A stretch of DNA of 64,000 bases from Escherichia coli. Its GTDB lineage: Bacteria > Pseudomonadota > Gammaproteobacteria > Enterobacterales > Enterobacteriaceae. The stretch lies in assembly GCF_044324875.1 (NCBI RefSeq), contig NZ_CP172185.1; one strand, 5' to 3'. Under the pieces are notes generated by a model, which was given only the letters and a program-made list of their open reading frames with translations, had not been told where the DNA came from and ran no database searches. Made by a program: the position numbers and the translations under genes. This document shows positions 31,623 to 48,224 of this stretch, piece by piece; within the stretch, counting starts at the first letter, position 1; each line of letters begins with the position of its first letter.

Positions 31623-38469
<6,847 letters not shown>

Positions 38470-40119
38470 GTGAACTGGCGCAGAATCGTCTGGCTATTGG
38501 CGTTGGTTACTCTGCCAACGCTTGCGGAGGAGACGCCGTTACAACTGGTGCTGCGCGGTGCGCAGCACGATCAACTGTATCAGCTGTCGTCATCAGGCGT
38601 GACCAAAGTCTCAGCATTACCTGACACTCTCACCACGCCGTTAGGGAGTTTGTGGAAACTGTATGTTTACGCCTGGCTGGAGGATACCCATCAACCGGAG
38701 CAGCCCTACCAGTGTCGTGGAAACTCCCCGGAAGAGGTTTATTGTTGTCAGGCTGGGGAGAGCATAACGCGCGATACCGCGCTGGTACGTTCCTGTGGGC
38801 TCTATTTTGCGCCGCAGCGGTTGCATATTAGCGCAGATGTGTGGGGGCAATACTGGCAACAGCGTCAGGCACCTGCGTGGTTAGCGTCTCTTACTACGCT
38901 GAAGCCAGAAACCTCGGTAACGGTTAAATCACTGCTTGATTCATTAGCGACGTTACCCGCGCAAAACAAAGCTCAGGAAGTCTTACTGGATGTGGTGCTG
39001 GACGAGGCGAAAATCGGTGTCGCATCCATGCTCGGTAGTCGGGTACGGGTGAAAACCTGGAGCTGGTTTGCCGATGATAAACAGGAAATCCGTCAGGGTG
39101 GTTTTGCCGGCTGGTTAACCGATGGTTCACCGCTGTGGGTTACTGGCAGTGGCACCAGCAAAACGGTACTAACCCGTTATGCGACGGTGCTTAATCGGGT
39201 TTTGCCAGTGCCGACGCAGGTTGCCAGTGGGCAATGTGTAGAGGTGGAGCTGTTTGCCCGCTATCCGCTGAAGAAAATCACAGCGGAAAAGAGTACGACG
39301 GCAGTAAAACCCGGCGTACTTAATGGGCGCTATCGTGTGACATTTGCCAATGGTAACCACATTACGTTTGTCAGCCACGGTGAGACGACCTTACTGAGCG
39401 AAAAGGGCAAACTGAAATTGCAGTCGCATCTTGATCGTGAAGAGTACGTTGCCAGAGTTCTGGATCGCGAGGCGAAAAGTACGCCCCCTGAGGCAGCGAA
39501 AGCCATGACCGTGGCGATTCGCACTTTTTTACAGCAAAACGCCAATCGGGAAGGCGATTGCCTGACCATCCCCGACAGTAGCGCCACGCAGCGTGTTTCT
39601 GCTTCGCCAGCGACCACGGGGGCGCGAACGATGACCGCCTGGACGCAGGATCTTATCTATGCGGGCGATCCGGTTCATTATCATGGCAGTCGCGCTACCG
39701 AAGGGACGCTTTCCTGGCGGCAAGCCACGGCCCAGGCGGGGCAGGGAGAGCGTTACGATCAGATACTCGCATTTGCTTATCCCGACAATAGCCTTAGCCG
39801 CTGGGGAGCGCCGCGCTCAACCTGCCAGTTATTACCCAAAGCGAAAGCCTGGCTGGCGAAAAAAATGCCGCAGTGGCGGCGTATATTACAAGGCGAGACG
39901 GGGTACAACGAACCAGACGTGTTTGCGGTCTGTCGTTTAGTCTCAGGTTTCCCCTATACCGATCGGCAGCAGAAACGGCTGTTTATTCGTAACTTCTTTA
40001 CGCTTCAGGATCGGCTGGATTTAACCCATGAGTATCTGCACCTGGCCTTTGATGGTTATCCCACCGGGCTTGATGAGAACTATATCGAAACGCTGACCCG
40101 ACAATTATTAATGGACTAA
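38470..40119 (+). CDS. yfaQ: YfaQ family protein (DUF2300-like), signal peptide
   Basis: 549-aa ORF starting at GTG immediately after the yfaS stop (TAA-GTG); N-terminus MNWRRIVWLLALVTLPTLA. Confidence 0.8.
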   Translation: MNWRRIVWLLALVTLPTLAEETPLQLVLRGAQHDQLYQLSSSGVTKVSALPDTLTTPLGSLWKLYVYAWLEDTHQPEQPYQCRGNSPEEVYCCQAGESITRDTALVRSCGLYFAPQRLHISADVWGQYWQQRQAPAWLASLTTLKPETSVTVKSLLDSLATLPAQNKAQEVLLDVVLDEAKIGVASMLGSRVRVKTWSWFADDKQEIRQGGFAGWLTDGSPLWVTGSGTSKTVLTRYATVLNRVLPVPTQVASGQCVEVELFARYPLKKITAEKSTTAVKPGVLNGRYRVTFANGNHITFVSHGETTLLSEKGKLKLQSHLDREEYVARVLDREAKSTPPEAAKAMTVAIRTFLQQNANREGDCLTIPDSSATQRVSASPATTGARTMTAWTQDLIYAGDPVHYHGSRATEGTLSWRQATAQAGQGERYDQILAFAYPDNSLSRWGAPRSTCQLLPKAKAWLAKKMPQWRRILQGETGYNEPDVFAVCRLVSGFPYTDRQQKRLFIRNFFTLQDRLDLTHEYLHLAFDGYPTGLDENYIETLTRQLLMD

Positions 40120-40123
40120 TGCT

Positions 40124-40900
40124 ATGCGAAAGATTTTTCTTCCGTTGTTACTGGTGGCGCTTTCGCCTGTCGCTCACAGTGAAGGTGTGCAGGAAGTCGA
40201 GATTGATGCACCGCTCTCTGGCTGGCATCCGGCAGAGGGCGAAGATGCCAGTTTTTCACAATCGCTCAATTACCCGGCGTCGTCCGTCAACATGGCAGAT
40301 GATCAAAATATCTCAGCGCAGATCCGCGGCAAAATAAAGAATTATGCTGCGGCGGGTAAAGTTCAGCAGGGCCGGCTGGTGGTCAACGGTGCCAGTATGC
40401 CGCAGAGAATTGAATCCGATGGTTCATTTGCACGCCCTTATATTTTTACTGAAGGCAGCAACAGCGTGCAGGTCATCAGCCCAGATGGGCAAAGCCGACA
40501 AAAAATGCAGTTTTACTCAACGCCGGGCGCTGGAGTGATCCGCGCGCGTTTACGGCTGGTTCTCTCCTGGGATACGGACAATACCGACCTCGACCTTCAC
40601 GTTGTTACACCTGATGGCGAACACGCCTGGTACGGTAACACCGTGCTGAAAAACAGTGGTGCACTGGATATGGATGTCACGACGGGGTACGGCCCCGAGA
40701 TTTTCGCCATGCCAGCGCCGATTCACGGACGTTATCAGGTGTATATAAACTACTATGGCGGACGCAGCGAAACGGAATTAACCACCGCCCAACTGACGCT
40801 GATCACTGATGAAGGATCGGTCAATGAGAAACAGGAAACTTTCATTGTACCGATGCGTAATGCTGGCGAGTTGACGCTGGTGAAAAGTTTTGACTGGTGA
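40124..40900 (+). CDS. yfaP: YfaP family protein (DUF2135-like), signal peptide
   Basis: 258-aa ORF MRKIFLPLLLVALSPVAHS, 4 nt after the yfaQ stop; last gene of the cassette. Confidence 0.8.
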   Translation: MRKIFLPLLLVALSPVAHSEGVQEVEIDAPLSGWHPAEGEDASFSQSLNYPASSVNMADDQNISAQIRGKIKNYAAAGKVQQGRLVVNGASMPQRIESDGSFARPYIFTEGSNSVQVISPDGQSRQKMQFYSTPGAGVIRARLRLVLSWDTDNTDLDLHVVTPDGEHAWYGNTVLKNSGALDMDVTTGYGPEIFAMPAPIHGRYQVYINYYGGRSETELTTAQLTLITDEGSVNEKQETFIVPMRNAGELTLVKSFDW

Positions 40901-40973: not shown

Positions 40974-42158
40974 TTAATTCAACCGTTCAATCACCATCGC
41001 AATTCCCTGGCCGCCACCAATGCACAGTGTTGCCAGCCCCAGCGTTTTATCGCGTGCCTGCATGGCATGTAATAGTGTGACCAGAATACGAGCACCACTG
41101 GCACCGATAGGATGCCCGAGCGCGATGGCCCCGCCGTTGACATTCACTTTCTCAGAATCAAAGCCCAGGGTTTTCCCAACGGCAAGGAACTGTGCAGCAA
41201 ATGCTTCATTAGCCTCAATGAGATCAATATCCGCCAGTTGCAGCCCCGCCAGTTGTAACGCTTTTTGCGTGGCAGGTACTGGCCCCATACCCATCAATGC
41301 GGGGGGCACGCCACCGCTGGCATAACTTTTAATGCGAGCCAGGGGGGTAAGGCCTGCTGCCAGCGCCGCAGATTCTTCCATAATCACCAGAGCGGCAGCA
41401 CCGTCGTTAATACCAGACGCGTTCCCGGCGGTGACTGTTCCTGCTTTATCGAAGGCCGGGCGCAACGCGCCTAACGCTTCAGTCGTAGAATCCGCTTTCG
41501 GGAATTCGTCTTGACTGAAGACGAAGGTTTTCTTCCGAGTGACAACATTTACCGGGACGATTTCGGCTGTAAAAGCACCGGACTCAATTGCGGCTGCCGC
41601 TTTACGCTGTGAATGTAGCGCCAGTTCATCCTGCATTTCTCGGGTAATTCCGTACTCTTTGGCCACGTTCTCGGCGGTAATCCCCATATGATAACCATGG
41701 GTGGCGCACATCAGACCATCGCGCAGGATTACGTCATAAACCTGTCCGTCTCCAAGACGATAACCAGAGCGTGCTTTTGCATCGAGTAAGTAGGGCGCTA
41801 AACTCATATTTTCCATACCCCCCGCCACAATGCTTTGCGCCTGACCTGCCTGAATTGCCTGGGCGGCAAGCGCCACACTTTTAAGACCCGAACCACACAC
41901 TTTATTGACCGTGAATCCGCACACCGTTTCTGCCAGCCCGCTTTTTAACAGTGCCTGACGTGCCGGATTTTGCCCCAACCCGGCTTGCAACACGTTACCC
42001 ATAATCACTTCATCAATGTGTAGTGAATCGATTTTTGCACGTTCAATGGCGGCTTTAATTACTGTCGCCCCCAGGTCGATGGCGCTGGTGGAAGCGAGTG
42101 AACCGTTAAAACTACCGATAGCAGTACGTACCGCACTGACGATGACACAATTTTTCAT
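40974..42158 (-). CDS. atoB: Acetyl-CoA acetyltransferase (thiolase II)
   Basis: 394-aa [24 protein letters not shown]... with thiolase active-site Cys; C-terminus [16 protein letters not shown]. Confidence 0.9.
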
Positions 42159-42188
42159 TTTTTATTCCTTCTGTCTGTAGGGTTGCCG

Positions 42189-43511
42189 TCAGAACAGCGT
42201 TAAACCAATGACGAAAATGACGCCGGAGAAGAGCAGGGCAGTGATGCAATAGCCCATGATGTCGCGGACACCGAGTCCGGCGATTGCCAGTGCTGGCAGC
42301 GCCCAGAATGGTTGTGCCATGTTCATCCATTGCTCGCCGTAGGCGATCGCCATTACCGATTTACCGAGATCAGCGCCCAGCGCCTGGGCTGCGGGTATCA
42401 CGAAAGGTCCCTGAATAACCCAGTGACCGCCGCCAGACGGAACGGCGAAGTTAATCAGTGCAGAACTAAAAAAGGTCATTACCGGGAAGGTGTCTTTGTT
42501 CGCAACATTGATGAAGAATTCGGTAATGAGTCCGCCCAGACCGGAATGCTCCATCATCAGTTGGATCCCAGCGTAGAAGGGGAATTGCACCAGAATACCG
42601 GCAGTACTGCGTGCTGCCGCGCTGATAGCACGCATATAAGCCATTGGCGTTTTATGTAGCAGCAGACCCGCAATCATAAACATCAGGTTGACGGTATTGA
42701 TGGTGATGTTGAAGCCATGTTCGCTGAAGTACATCGCAAGGTAAGCGATACCGAGTGCGCCGATGATCAACGTCAGAATGCGGCTTTCTTCCAGTCGCTC
42801 GGATGGTGGGGCATCTTTCGGTAGCTGCTTTTGGAAATCAGCCTCTTCCATGAGTAGTTTCGGATCGATACTCACCACGTCAGACGGTTTTGGCATCATC
42901 ATGCGGGTGATAAATGGCATCACCACAATCAACGCCACAGTGATGAAAATGTTAAAACCACTGAACAGAGTATCGCCCACCGGGATCAGCCCGGCGATAT
43001 GCTCAACCGGGTTGCCCGGTGTTGCAGCCAACAGAGGCATTGAGCCAGAGAAACCGCCACCCCAGGTGAGAAAACCAATGTAGGCGCAGGCAATGAGCAA
43101 CGGATAATCAGAACCGGGTACTCGGCGGGCGACTTCACGGGCAAACATTGCGCCGACAACCAAACCAAATCCCCAGTTGATGACACAAGCGACTGAACCG
43201 AAGAAAGTAACCAGCATGACGCCCTGTACGGGCGTCTTTGCGGCGGAGGCGGCAGTACGCAGCAAACTTTTTACCGGAGCAGAGCTGGCAAGGGCATGAC
43301 CGGTAACGATGATAAGTGCCATCTGCATACCAAACGCCAGCAAGTTCCAGAAACCGTCACCCCACATTTTCACCATGCTGATCGGCGTTTGTGGTGTTAA
43401 CCAAAGCGCGATCACGAAAGTTAGCAATGTCAGCAACATGGCAAAGATCAGTGGATCGGGAAGCCACCGGCTGACAAAACGCGTCATAAAACGCGATATG
43501 CGACCAATCAT
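42189..43511 (-). CDS. atoE: Short-chain fatty acid transporter
   Basis: 440-aa polytopic membrane protein; start overlaps the atoA stop. Confidence 0.9.
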   Translation of the reverse strand: MIGRISRFMTRFVSRWLPDPLIFAMLLTLLTFVIALWLTPQTPISMVKMWGDGFWNLLAFGMQMALIIVTGHALASSAPVKSLLRTAASAAKTPVQGVMLVTFFGSVACVINWGFGLVVGAMFAREVARRVPGSDYPLLIACAYIGFLTWGGGFSGSMPLLAATPGNPVEHIAGLIPVGDTLFSGFNIFITVALIVVMPFITRMMMPKPSDVVSIDPKLLMEEADFQKQLPKDAPPSERLEESRILTLIIGALGIAYLAMYFSEHGFNITINTVNLMFMIAGLLLHKTPMAYMRAISAAARSTAGILVQFPFYAGIQLMMEHSGLGGLITEFFINVANKDTFPVMTFFSSALINFAVPSGGGHWVIQGPFVIPAAQALGADLGKSVMAIAYGEQWMNMAQPFWALPALAIAGLGVRDIMGYCITALLFSGVIFVIGLTLF

Positions 43512-44158
43512 AAATCACCCCGTTGCGTATTCAGATCGGCGGCAACTTCAAACCGAGCTTCTGTTTTGGCACACACGGTGGCTAAATCACACCCGTCGGC
43601 AATTTCGGTGAGCCACATTTTGCCGTCAATAAAACGAAAGACAGCCAGTTCAGTAACCAGCATATGCACCGCATGTTGCGCAGTGAGTGGCATGGTGCAG
43701 CGGCGCAAAATTTTTGCTGAACCATCTTTGGCACAATGTTCCATGGCGATGATCACTTTGCGCGACCCGGTCACCAGATCCATCGCGCCACCCATACCGG
43801 GCACCATTTTCCCAGGCACTACCCAGTTCGCGAGGTTGGCTTCTTCGTCTACCTGCAAACCGCCGAGCACGCAGGCATCAATATGACCGCCGCGGATTAG
43901 CGCAAATGACATGGCGCTATCAAACATGGCTGCACCGGGTAAAACACCGCACGGTTGTCCGCCAGCGTTCACCAGATCTGGATGCGCTGTCGTGACCGGG
44001 CCTAAACCGAGGAAGCCGTTTTCCGATTGCAGAGTGATATGAATACCCTCCGGTAAATAATTGGCGACCATTGTGGGTAAACCGATCCCTAAGTTAACGA
44101 TGTCACCATCACGAAGCTCTTGCGCCACACGGCGCGCAATACGTTGTTTCGCATCCAT
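43508..44158 (-). CDS. atoA: Acetate CoA-transferase beta subunit
   Basis: 216-aa [31 protein letters not shown]... Confidence 0.9.
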   Translation of the reverse strand: MDAKQRIARRVAQELRDGDIVNLGIGLPTMVANYLPEGIHITLQSENGFLGLGPVTTAHPDLVNAGGQPCGVLPGAAMFDSAMSFALIRGGHIDACVLGGLQVDEEANLANWVVPGKMVPGMGGAMDLVTGSRKVIIAMEHCAKDGSAKILRRCTMPLTAQHAVHMLVTELAVFRFIDGKMWLTEIADGCDLATVCAKTEARFEVAADLNTQRGDL

Positions 44159-44820
44159 TATTTGCTCTCCTGTGAAACGATGATGTGGTCGATAACGGCA
44201 CCAGGGGTGACAATATGGTCAGGTTGCAGCTCGCCGATTTCGACCAGTTCATCTGGCTCTACCAGCGTGATATCAGCCGCAAGGGCTATCAGGGGGTTAA
44301 AGTTGCGGGCGCTAAGGTGATAGGTCAGGTTGCCAAGTGTGTCGCAACGATGAGCGCGAATTAGCGCCAGGTCGGCGCGCAGTGGGCGTTCGAGCAGCCA
44401 GGTTTTACCGTCGAGTGTCAGTGTCTGTTTGCCTTCCTCTACGACGGTGCCGACACCCGTTGGGGTGAGAAAACCACCAAGTCCAGCTCCACCACAGCGA
44501 ATTTGCTCGATTAGCGTACCTTGCGGCACCAGAACGACGTCCATCTCACCAGATATCATGCGCCGACCTGTTTCCGGGTTGGTGCCGATATGTGAAGCAA
44601 TCACTTTGCGGACTCGACCATTGACGATGAGCGGACCGATGCCAGTATCAACAAACGCGGTATCATTGGCTATCAATGTCAGGTCGCGAACACCAGATTC
44701 CAGTAATGCTTCAACCAGGCGGGATGGAGTGCCAATCCCCATAAATCCGCCCACCATGATGGTCATGCCGTCACGAAAGAAGCCGGTGGCATCTTGTAAT
44801 GTCATCAATTTTGTTTTCAT
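44158..44820 (-). CDS. atoD: Acetate CoA-transferase alpha subunit
   Basis: 220-aa [29 protein letters not shown]... Confidence 0.9.
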
Positions 44821-44860
44821 TTTTTATCCCTCTTGCATACACCGTTGTGGGTACAGTCAG

Positions 44861-44882
44861 GGAATAGCAAGGGGAGTGCCAG
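44861..44882 (-). promoter_or_regulatory. Sigma-54 (-24/-12) promoter for atoDAEB
   Basis: On the ato strand: cTGGCACtccccTTGCTa (TGGCAC-N5-TTGC), about 40-60 bp upstream of the atoD ATG; fits AtoC being an NtrC-type activator. Confidence 0.55.
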
Positions 44883-44963
44883 AATGAGATTACTGGATTT
44901 TGTTATTTAACTAATTGAATATGAAGGGATAAATTGGATGGGGATTTATAAGGAGAATGAGCG

Positions 44964-45004
44964 GCTATGCAGAAAATTGCGCACTGTGCAAATTTCTGCA
45001 TAGC
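44964..45004. promoter_or_regulatory. AtoC enhancer: 20-bp inverted repeat pair
   Basis: gctatgcagaaaattgcgca-c-tgtgcaaatttctgcatagc, about 18/20 symmetrical, just downstream of the atoC stop and about 100 bp upstream of the sigma-54 promoter. Confidence 0.6.
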
Positions 45005-45015
45005 AAGTTTTAGCG

Positions 45016-46401
45016 TTATACATCCGCCGGATCGATACCGTATTCCTGGAGTTTATACATCAATGCACGGCGACTGATGCCCAGCATTAAAGCAGTGCGG
45101 GTTCGGTTTCCTTCTTGTTGTTCCAGCACTTCCATAATGATGCGTTTTTCGACGCGTTTAATTTCCTCTTTTAAATTACGCTCTCCGACAGGGGATGTTT
45201 TTACCTCGCCAGCATTACTGACTGGCTGACGAATCTGCGGCGGAAGATCCTCAGAAAAAATGATCGGGCCTGAGTTCATCACGACGGCGCGTTCAATAAC
45301 GTTGGAAAGCTCTCGAATATTTCCCGGCCATGACCAGGCGGTAAGCAGTGACATTGCCATCGGATCGATGTCGATAATATCGCGCTGATTCTCACTACTG
45401 AATTTTTGCAAAAAGTGATTAGCTAACAGGGAAATATCTTCCCGGCGATCGCGCAGAGGCGGCAGTATTAAATGAATAACGTTAAGGCGATAAAAGAGAT
45501 CTTCACGGAAGGTGCCTTCTTTCACCATTGCCTGCAAGTCGCGGTTGGTGGCAGCAATGATGCGGATATCAACTTTTATGGTCTGATGGCCGCCAATCCG
45601 TTCAAATTCCCGTTCCTGCAGAATGCGTAGTAATTTGGCTTGCAGTACGAGCGGCATTTCGCCAATTTCGTCGAGGAGCAGAGTACCTTCGTTGGCACGT
45701 TCAAATAATCCCTGACGCAAGGTTTGTGCACCAGTAAATGCCCCTTTTTCATGACCAAACAGTTCACTTTCGAGCAACGATTCCGGCAGCGCCGCGCAGT
45801 TGACTTTAATGAACGGCCCCTTTGCCCGCCGCGAATTGTAGTGAATCGCTCTGGCAATCAACTCTTTCCCGGTGCCGCTTTCACCGCTAATCAAGACGCT
45901 GGCCTGAGAAAGGGCAATTTTGGCGGTGTCTTTGCAGATATCCATCATCGCCGGGCTGTTGGTGAGAATGTGCCCCCATTGCCAGCTGGTGCTCAGTGCC
46001 TGGTGCAGATGACGGATCTCTTTTTTCATTGACTGGAGTTGTAAAGCGCGCTGAACGATTAAATTCAACTCATCGAGATCAAACGGTTTGATAACATAGT
46101 CGAAGGCCCCGCAGCGTAGCGCTTCGACGGCGGTTTCCACTTCAGCATAGGCCGTCATCAGAATAACGGGGGTCCGTGTCTCATGGCTGCGCATCTCCTT
46201 GAGTGCCTTGATGCCGTCCATCTCTGGCATGCGGATATCCATCAACACCACGTCAGGGTGAATATCAGCAAACAGGTGTAATGCTGTGCGTCCGTTGTTC
46301 GCACAATGTGTTTCGAAACCTTGTAGTGCAAAAGCGGTGCTCAGCATACGGCGAACATTATCTTCATCATCCACAATAAGGATGCGATTAATAGCAGTCA
46401 T
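45016..46401 (-). CDS. atoC: NtrC-family sigma-54-dependent response regulator
   Basis: 461-aa ORF with receiver domain (ILIVDDEDNVRRML), AAA+ sigma-54 interaction domain (GESGTGKE, GAFTGA) and C-terminal HTH. Confidence 0.9.
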   Translation of the reverse strand: MTAINRILIVDDEDNVRRMLSTAFALQGFETHCANNGRTALHLFADIHPDVVLMDIRMPEMDGIKALKEMRSHETRTPVILMTAYAEVETAVEALRCGAFDYVIKPFDLDELNLIVQRALQLQSMKKEIRHLHQALSTSWQWGHILTNSPAMMDICKDTAKIALSQASVLISGESGTGKELIARAIHYNSRRAKGPFIKVNCAALPESLLESELFGHEKGAFTGAQTLRQGLFERANEGTLLLDEIGEMPLVLQAKLLRILQEREFERIGGHQTIKVDIRIIAATNRDLQAMVKEGTFREDLFYRLNVIHLILPPLRDRREDISLLANHFLQKFSSENQRDIIDIDPMAMSLLTAWSWPGNIRELSNVIERAVVMNSGPIIFSEDLPPQIRQPVSNAGEVKTSPVGERNLKEEIKRVEKRIIMEVLEQQEGNRTRTALMLGISRRALMYKLQEYGIDPADV

Positions 46402-48224
46402 ACAGTCTGATTTCCCTGCGGGTTGATCGGTAAAATAAGCGTGAAGGTTGCGCCGTAGCCCGGCAAACTGGCGACGCGAATATCACCCTGATGGGCATTA
46501 ATGATGCGTTGACTTAACGCCAGACCAAGCCCGGTTCCTGAGGCTTTGGTGGTGAAAAAGGGATCGAAGATCTTTTTTTGCAGCGAGAGATCAATGCCAC
46601 AGCCGTTGTCCTCTATCGAAATGGCCTGTTGTGAGTCGCTGTACTGCCAGGTTCGAATGCGAATTTTCCCTCGTGCACTGATAGCCTGGACGGCATTGAT
46701 CAGGATATTCAGTAGTACCTGTTTGAGCAGTTCACGATCGGCGTTAATCGGGCTTAATTCATTATCCAGTTCGCTTATGAAGTCGATCCGCGCTTGTACG
46801 CCAGCGGTTTGTACCAGTACCAGAGTTTCTTCAACCAATGCATTGAGGCTGACTTGTTGCCATTGACTGTGGCGTGGACGTGAAAATTCGAGCAATTGCT
46901 GAATAACTTTGTTAATTGAATCGATTTCTTTGAGTACTACGGACAGATATTCCTGATGTATTGGGTCACCGGTTTGTTGGCGCAAGATCTGTACATAACC
47001 ACGAATAGCCGTTAGCGGATTACGTACTTCATGCGCGACGCCAGCCATCAGCTCACCCAGTGTGGCGAGGCGTTCTGCTTGCGCCATGCGGCGCTGGGTT
47101 TCTTTGCGGGCAGTTAAATCAGAGAAAATCACCAAAGCACCTATCATTTCACCATGCGTGTTATGAATACGACTGGTAGTGACACTGAGTTCAATGGTGC
47201 GGTCACGGCCTGGAAAACTGATCTCCAGCGCTACATGTTCGGTGCCATGTTCCAGCGTATCCAGTACTGGACTGTAGAACTGAGTATTGTCGAACAACAT
47301 GGAGTAAGGCTGCCCTACCAGTTCATGACGTTGATAGCCAGTGATGACTTCTGCTGCCGGGTTCATGGTGGTTACATCACCCTGGCGGTCAATGGCAATG
47401 ACGCCATCGGCAGCGTTTTCAATAATCAGATCGTTAAGTGTCCGCGTTTCACGCAGTGCCTGGGCGAGGTTGTTAACACTCTGACTGATTTGCCCCATTT
47501 CACCGGGCAATTGTGGTAATCGAGTGGGAATATTTTGCGCCAGAGTCGAGAGGCCATCGGTGATGATATCAATATTGGCGCTCAGGCGACGGGAGAAAAG
47601 GACAATCAACAGCAGGCTTATCAGCAAACCGGCGGTGAGCACAATGATAATCCTCACATCCATTTTCCAGGCCTGGCGGCGAATATCTTCGGTTAATTCA
47701 TTGGCCCAGATATAGCCGAGGATTTCACCATTACGCTCAATGGGGATCATTGAATTCAAAATATCGCCGCGCACCTGCCTGCCTGAATAAACCAAAGGGG
47801 TATTTGTACGCATGACTTCGCGACCAGGGTGATCTGCGGCAATGGTAACGCCGACATTATTCTGATATAGCGCTGAAGGCGCGTAGGTGATTATCGCATC
47901 CAGCGTTTTGTTGTAATAACTAGCGCCGATGCCAGGGAAGGCGTGAGTGATATTTTCGGTAATGGGGGCAAGTTCTGCATTTAATGCGCGGATACGCTCC
48001 TCACGTGGTAAGTCGATGTAGAGATCATAGCGATCGCCTAGTGCCTGATTAAGCAGGTTGACCACGGCAGAAAGTTTTTTCTCTTTTTCAGATAAGACTG
48101 CTGAACGTCCTTCCGTTTCTACGATATAACCAATAGTAAGCGTTGGGACAATGACCATCAGGATTGCCATCAGGATCATTTGATTGCGTAAGCGGCGTGG
48201 ATAAATCCACTTCATATAATGCAT
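46398..48224 (-). CDS. atoS: Sensor histidine kinase of the AtoSC two-component system
   Basis: ORF 46398..48236; ATG 48224 preferred (MHYMKWIYPRRL); TM segments, PAS domain, H-box (HEVRNPL), ATPase domain; 4-nt overlap with atoC. Confidence 0.9.
   Translation of the reverse strand: MHYMKWIYPRRLRNQMILMAILMVIVPTLTIGYIVETEGRSAVLSEKEKKLSAVVNLLNQALGDRYDLYIDLPREERIRALNAELAPITENITHAFPGIGASYYNKTLDAIITYAPSALYQNNVGVTIAADHPGREVMRTNTPLVYSGRQVRGDILNSMIPIERNGEILGYIWANELTEDIRRQAWKMDVRIIIVLTAGLLISLLLIVLFSRRLSANIDIITDGLSTLAQNIPTRLPQLPGEMGQISQSVNNLAQALRETRTLNDLIIENAADGVIAIDRQGDVTTMNPAAEVITGYQRHELVGQPYSMLFDNTQFYSPVLDTLEHGTEHVALEISFPGRDRTIELSVTTSRIHNTHGEMIGALVIFSDLTARKETQRRMAQAERLATLGELMAGVAHEVRNPLTAIRGYVQILRQQTGDPIHQEYLSVVLKEIDSINKVIQQLLEFSRPRHSQWQQVSLNALVEETLVLVQTAGVQARIDFISELDNELSPINADRELLKQVLLNILINAVQAISARGKIRIRTWQYSDSQQAISIEDNGCGIDLSLQKKIFDPFFTTKASGTGLGLALSQRIINAHQGDIRVASLPGYGATFTLILPINPQGNQTV

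Follow-up and report, generated by a model that had tools for sequence, protein, structure and literature searches.

The 195-bp spacer between atoC and atoD (44821–45015, minus strand) is almost certainly the known region through which AtoC and sigma-54 control the E. coli atoDAEB operon in response to acetoacetate, with a putative bend at an IHF-like box. The spacer was studied within a 64,000-nucleotide stretch of E. coli DNA (the window), whose numbering is used throughout, and it contains a 41-bp palindrome at 44964–45004, an IHF-like box at 44920–44908 and a sigma-54 promoter core at 44881–44867, all read on the minus strand. These elements are present, identical to those of strain K-12 and conserved, and the genes that they would serve are intact. 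Binding of AtoC and of sigma-54 RNA polymerase has been established by others on the identical K-12 sequence, and from this identity we infer that the region is also active in the present strain; nothing that we found contradicts control by AtoC and sigma-54.

All genes of the ato locus lie on the minus strand. The sensor histidine kinase gene atoS (46398–48224, 608 aa) adjoins atoC (45016–46401, 461 aa), which encodes a response regulator and sigma-54 enhancer-binding protein, and across the spacer lies the atoD-atoA-atoE-atoB operon (40974–44820), which would be driven by the sigma-54 promoter in the spacer and which comprises atoD (44158–44820, the first gene, with its ATG at 44820), atoA (43508–44158), atoE (42189–43511) and atoB (40974–42158). 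The neighbours of the locus, rcsC and the yfaP/yfaQ homologues, are those of the K-12 annotation. All six genes have their K-12 lengths, zero internal stops and 0–6 amino acid changes each: the full-length AtoS differs from its K-12 counterpart at 6 positions, AtoC at 2, and the products of atoD, atoA, atoE and atoB at 0–5 per gene. The Pfam domains found were Response_reg, Sigma54_activat, AAA_lid_14 and HTH_8 in AtoC, and HAMP (weak), PAS, HisKA and HATPase_c in AtoS; in AtoC, residue D55, the Walker A motif GESGTGKE, the Walker B motif LLLDE and the GAFTGA motif are all kept. The regulator is a receiver, AAA+ (GAFTGA) and HTH_8 protein with its sensor kinase gene next door, and both genes are intact. 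An earlier sequence-only reading of this DNA had taken the control module as support for a regulated and functional operon; six full-length ato genes and an AtoC with its motifs kept support that statement, although intact sequence does not prove it. Elsewhere in the window, an unbroken 1,539-aa ORF (33850–38469, plus strand) lies immediately upstream of the yfaQ (38470–40119) and yfaP (40124–40900) homologues; its K-12 counterpart, yfaS, is a pseudogene.

The palindrome starts 11 nt past the atoC stop codon. On the minus strand it consists of a distal arm (45004–44985), a single central base (44984) and a proximal arm (44983–44964); the two 20-nt stretches, GCTATGCAGAAAATTGCGCA (44964–44983) and TGTGCAAATTTCTGCATAGC (44985–45004), are separated by 1 nt and are complementary at 18 of 20 positions (90%). 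Among the hairpin-type inverted repeats of the 64-kb window it ranks first. Repeats of 20 + 20 nt that match at 18 or more positions across a loop of 0–5 nt are expected 6e-4 times per 64 kb, and none appeared in 200 shuffles. The near-perfect repeat that the sequence-only reading had reported at this place is borne out. Further AtoC-like half-sites were sought across the 64-kb window at up to 3 mismatches, and none was found elsewhere. Each 20-bp arm contains two TGCR tetranucleotides (starts at 45000, 44990, 44983 and 44971, within 44968–45000 on the minus strand), the distal pair being 10 bp apart, and this pairing of motifs hints that the 41-bp site may accommodate two AtoC dimers. A short overlapping palindrome, CTACTGAATTTTTGCAAAAAGTGATTAG, was also seen inside the atoC coding sequence (45395–45422); it is 83% complementary and is probably due to chance.

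The sigma-54 promoter core, TGGCACTCCCCTTGC (44881–44867, minus strand), matches the pattern TGGCAC-N5-TTGC exactly and is the sole exact match in the 64-kb window, on the ato strand as had been claimed. Its GG doublet (44880–44879, or -25/-24) and GC doublet (44868–44867, or -13/-12) are exactly 10 bp apart. The bare pattern is not significant alone, as 0.32 matches are expected over the whole window and 27 of 100 shuffles contained at least one. What makes the element significant is where it sits and which way it points: the atoD ATG follows 46 nt downstream, atoD is read in the same direction, and the spacer that holds both the element and the palindrome is 195 bp long. On the ato strand, a promoter scan gave no sigma-70-like hit.

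The transcription start was placed 12 nt past the C of the -12 GC doublet, that is at 44855, a rule which also yields the value of 35 given for the K-12 site by Bonocora et al. (PMC4591121); the atoD ATG follows 35 nt after the predicted start, as it does in the K-12 listing. Counted from this predicted start, the palindrome reaches from about -149 to -109 and is centred at -129. Its proximal edge (44964) is 82 bp away from the T of TGGCAC (44881), and its centre (44984) is 104 bp away from the -24 GG, which agrees with the earlier description of the repeat as lying about 100 bp upstream of the sigma-54 element. Work of Matta and colleagues from 2007 is reported to have placed the AtoC footprint at -146 to -107 and to have shown a need for IHF. 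Under that numbering the start would be at 44857–44858, which is still compatible with the -24/-12 element; the start and the 5′ untranslated leader would together fall within 44821–44858 (minus strand), the start being at 44855 by the -12 rule or at 44857–44858 by the footprint numbering. No mapped atoD start out of register with the -24/-12 element, which the sequence-only reading had named as the result that would count against it, was found. The leader carries a Shine-Dalgarno sequence, GAGGG, at 44832–44828.

Between the AtoC site and the promoter lies the IHF-like box, ATTCAATTAGTTA (44920–44908, minus strand; about -65 to -53), which matches WATCAANNNNTTR at 12 of 13 positions. Matches of the WATCAANNNNTTR type occur in the window at the background rate (61 vs 56 expected), and the box is nevertheless a conserved island, with only 2 of its 13 columns variable in the alignment described below. 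The box may be the one that IHF uses at this promoter. The sequence-only reading had described the control module as complete. The palindrome and the promoter on which it relied are indeed present, but it had overlooked the IHF-like box, and the trans-acting factors, rpoN and ihfAB, are encoded outside the 64-kb window.

Comparison with published K-12 elements identifies both main components, as the sequence-only reading had named them. Pilalis et al. (2011; PMC3118216, Table 5) list verified K-12 AtoC sites, GCTATGCAGAAATTTGCACA at -184 to -165 and GCTATGCAGAAAATTGCGCA at -163 to -144 from the atoD start, and these half-sites are ChIP-verified (PMC3118216). In the window, the distal arm matches GCTATGCAGAAATTTGCACA with 0 mismatches, and the proximal arm is GCTATGCAGAAAATTGCGCA itself; moreover, the published offsets from the atoD ATG map exactly onto 45004–44985 and 44983–44964. 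The text of that paper calls the arms 'identical', yet its own table has two differing positions, the same as here. For the promoter, the sigma-54 ChIP-seq study of Bonocora et al. (2015; PMC4591121) lists a site upstream of K-12 atoD, OS21, as CTGGCACTCCCCTTGCT, with a distance of 35 and a flag for an EcoCyc-confirmed promoter, and the promoter in the window is identical to OS21, together with flanking bases, over 17 nt. Genomic SELEX with the RpoN holoenzyme gave a peak in the atoC/atoD spacer (PMC8743547), and a Pato-GFP reporter was inducible by acetoacetate solely in atoS+ atoC+ hosts (PMC7618054). Binding of the sigma-54 holoenzyme and dependence of the promoter on rpoN would be expected in the present strain from its identity to the bound K-12 sequence.

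The spacer as a whole differs from that of K-12 at 5 of 195 bases; the palindrome, IHF-like box and -24/-12 core contain none of these. Two of the differences are between the atoC stop codon and the palindrome, two are in the stretch between the IHF-like box and the promoter (44901 and 44893; spacer B below), and one is just downstream of the -12 element (44862). Hence the region and the K-12 atoDAEB promoter region are alike in locus, gene order, palindrome, IHF-like box, 17-nt sigma-54 motif, spacings and Shine-Dalgarno sequence, and are unlike only in these five single-base differences and in the 0–6 amino acids by which each of the Ato proteins differs.

To find more distant relatives, orthologous spacers were sought with a degenerate, back-translated AtoD N-terminus in one genome per species, so that the regulatory elements were not presupposed. 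The scan returned two loci, both labelled E. coli, and no ato spacer from another genus: L003 (4323–4557, minus strand), with 91% identity across the spacer, and L002 (7214–7448, minus strand), with 76% identity and the atoC-atoDAEB gene order kept. These two truly divergent lineages were aligned with six E. coli sequences, including K-12 and four diverse strains, to give a footprint alignment of eight sequences. Variable columns amounted to 4 of 41 (10%) in the palindrome, 2 of 13 (15%) in the IHF-like box and 3 of 15 (20%) in the -24/-12 core, compared with 28 of 43 (65%) in spacer A, between the palindrome and the box, and 14 of 26 (54%) in spacer B; the lengths between the elements were constant to within 1 nt. 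The palindrome is unchanged among the six E. coli sequences, and its four variable columns appear on adding L002 and L003. In L002, G9 of the distal arm is changed to A and its partner C12′ to T, a symmetric double change which keeps the dyad; moreover, a T.T mismatch of the E. coli palindrome becomes T-A in both L002 and L003, repairing one of the two mismatches. The -24 element of L002 reads TGGCAT, with the GG and GC doublets retained. Although it comes from few lineages and includes a single compensatory event, the pattern is the one that a dyad bound by protein, a site of bending and a promoter would be expected to leave.

The leader, which runs from the -12 element to the atoD ATG (44821–44866, minus strand), is nearly as conserved as coding DNA, with 8 of 46 columns variable, and a block within it, GTACCCACAACGGTGTAT (44853–44836), is identical in all eight sequences, including that of the 76%-identical lineage. 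The only explanations that we offer for this are its promoter-proximal position and the ribosome-binding region.

When the region from 44700 to 45150 was used as the query against 5,426 complete E. coli genomes, a match was present in 3,924, at 90–99.8% identity. About 1,500 of the genomes (about 28%) gave no match, and the ato locus is therefore accessory. One match was on a plasmid. Seventeen E. coli records had 80–90% identity. A natural deletion was seen in E. coli CUVM53 (1501–1663), where the match ends after query base 163, a little before the sigma-54 promoter is reached; this strain lacks both that promoter and the atoD N-terminus, its atoD is annotated as a pseudogene, and atoSC and the palindrome are kept. 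In strain KH_005 the match covers the atoC end alone.

The palindrome lies directly downstream of atoC, and it could instead, or in addition, act at the RNA level, as a hairpin closing the atoSC transcript at its 3′ end and serving as a terminator, as an insulator against read-through or as a guard against 3′ exonucleases. On the ato strand, RNA folding gives a 16-bp hairpin at -23.3 kcal/mol (z = -6.8), and none of 200 shuffles was as stable; moreover, the symmetric double substitution of L002 would keep an RNA stem as well as a protein dyad. However, every DNA palindrome folds as RNA, so the folding adds no independent support. After the stem comes CCGCUCAUUCUCC and not a U-tract, a scan for terminators detected none on the ato strand, and an Rfam search of 44000–46000 returned zero families at E <= 1. 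Moreover, AtoC binding to the same bases is documented experimentally (PMC3118216), which leaves the hairpin at most a second role. We therefore consider this reading unlikely. An intrinsic terminator as the primary function of the palindrome was rejected: the hairpin is present, and there is no T-run after the stem and no hit of the scan on the ato strand. A dual use, in which the 41 bp would be selected both as the AtoC dyad and as a stem in the final 50 nt of atoSC mRNA, is likewise improbable, a shade more so in our estimate; if it were true, the hairpin would insulate atoDAEB from read-through or set the stability of the atoSC mRNA. That the palindrome and the sigma-54-like string co-occur in an AT-rich spacer by chance, with no joint function, has next to no probability, because although the bare TGGCAC-N5-TTGC pattern and the IHF consensus occur at unremarkable frequencies, a palindrome of this kind is so rarely expected per window, both elements have the same sequence as K-12 sites whose binding was shown by experiment and form conserved islands among diverged spacers, and the gene of the cognate enhancer-binding protein adjoins, so that statistics, conservation and published binding data for identical sequence together exclude it.

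Under the preferred reading of the spacer as the AtoC/sigma-54 control region, AtoS would sense acetoacetate and phosphorylate AtoC, and phosphorylated AtoC would bind the 41-bp palindrome, which spans about -149 to -109, and form the active AAA+ oligomer. The sigma-54 RNA polymerase would meanwhile wait as a closed complex on TGGCAC-N5-TTGC, and a bend at the IHF-like box, at about -59, would deliver AtoC to it. ATP hydrolysis by AtoC would then open the promoter, and transcription would begin about 35–38 nt before the atoD ATG, the exact start being a prediction from the promoter geometry. This arrangement resembles that of sigma-54 promoters of the NtrC-glnAp2/glnHp2 type, in that a REC-AAA+-HTH_8 activator has a dyad-symmetric enhancer, the promoter is of the -24/-12 kind and an IHF-type box lies between the two. 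In promoters of that type the enhancer lies at about -100 to -150, and an IHF bend occurs at some of them, for example glnHp2. They differ from the present region in the activator and signal, which here are AtoS/AtoC and acetoacetate, and in the recognition sequence: NtrC sites are TGCACC-N5-GGTGCA, unlike the 20-bp AtoC arms with two TGCR motifs each.

The control region is already published and characterised, and it is real but ordinary. The strain has an intact, K-12-like AtoSC-atoDAEB regulon for the catabolism of acetoacetate and short-chain fatty acids, which carries little significance beyond annotation. The small added value lies in the footprint, which independently shows constraint on the palindrome, on the IHF-like box and on the -24/-12 core, and in the one symmetric compensatory change.
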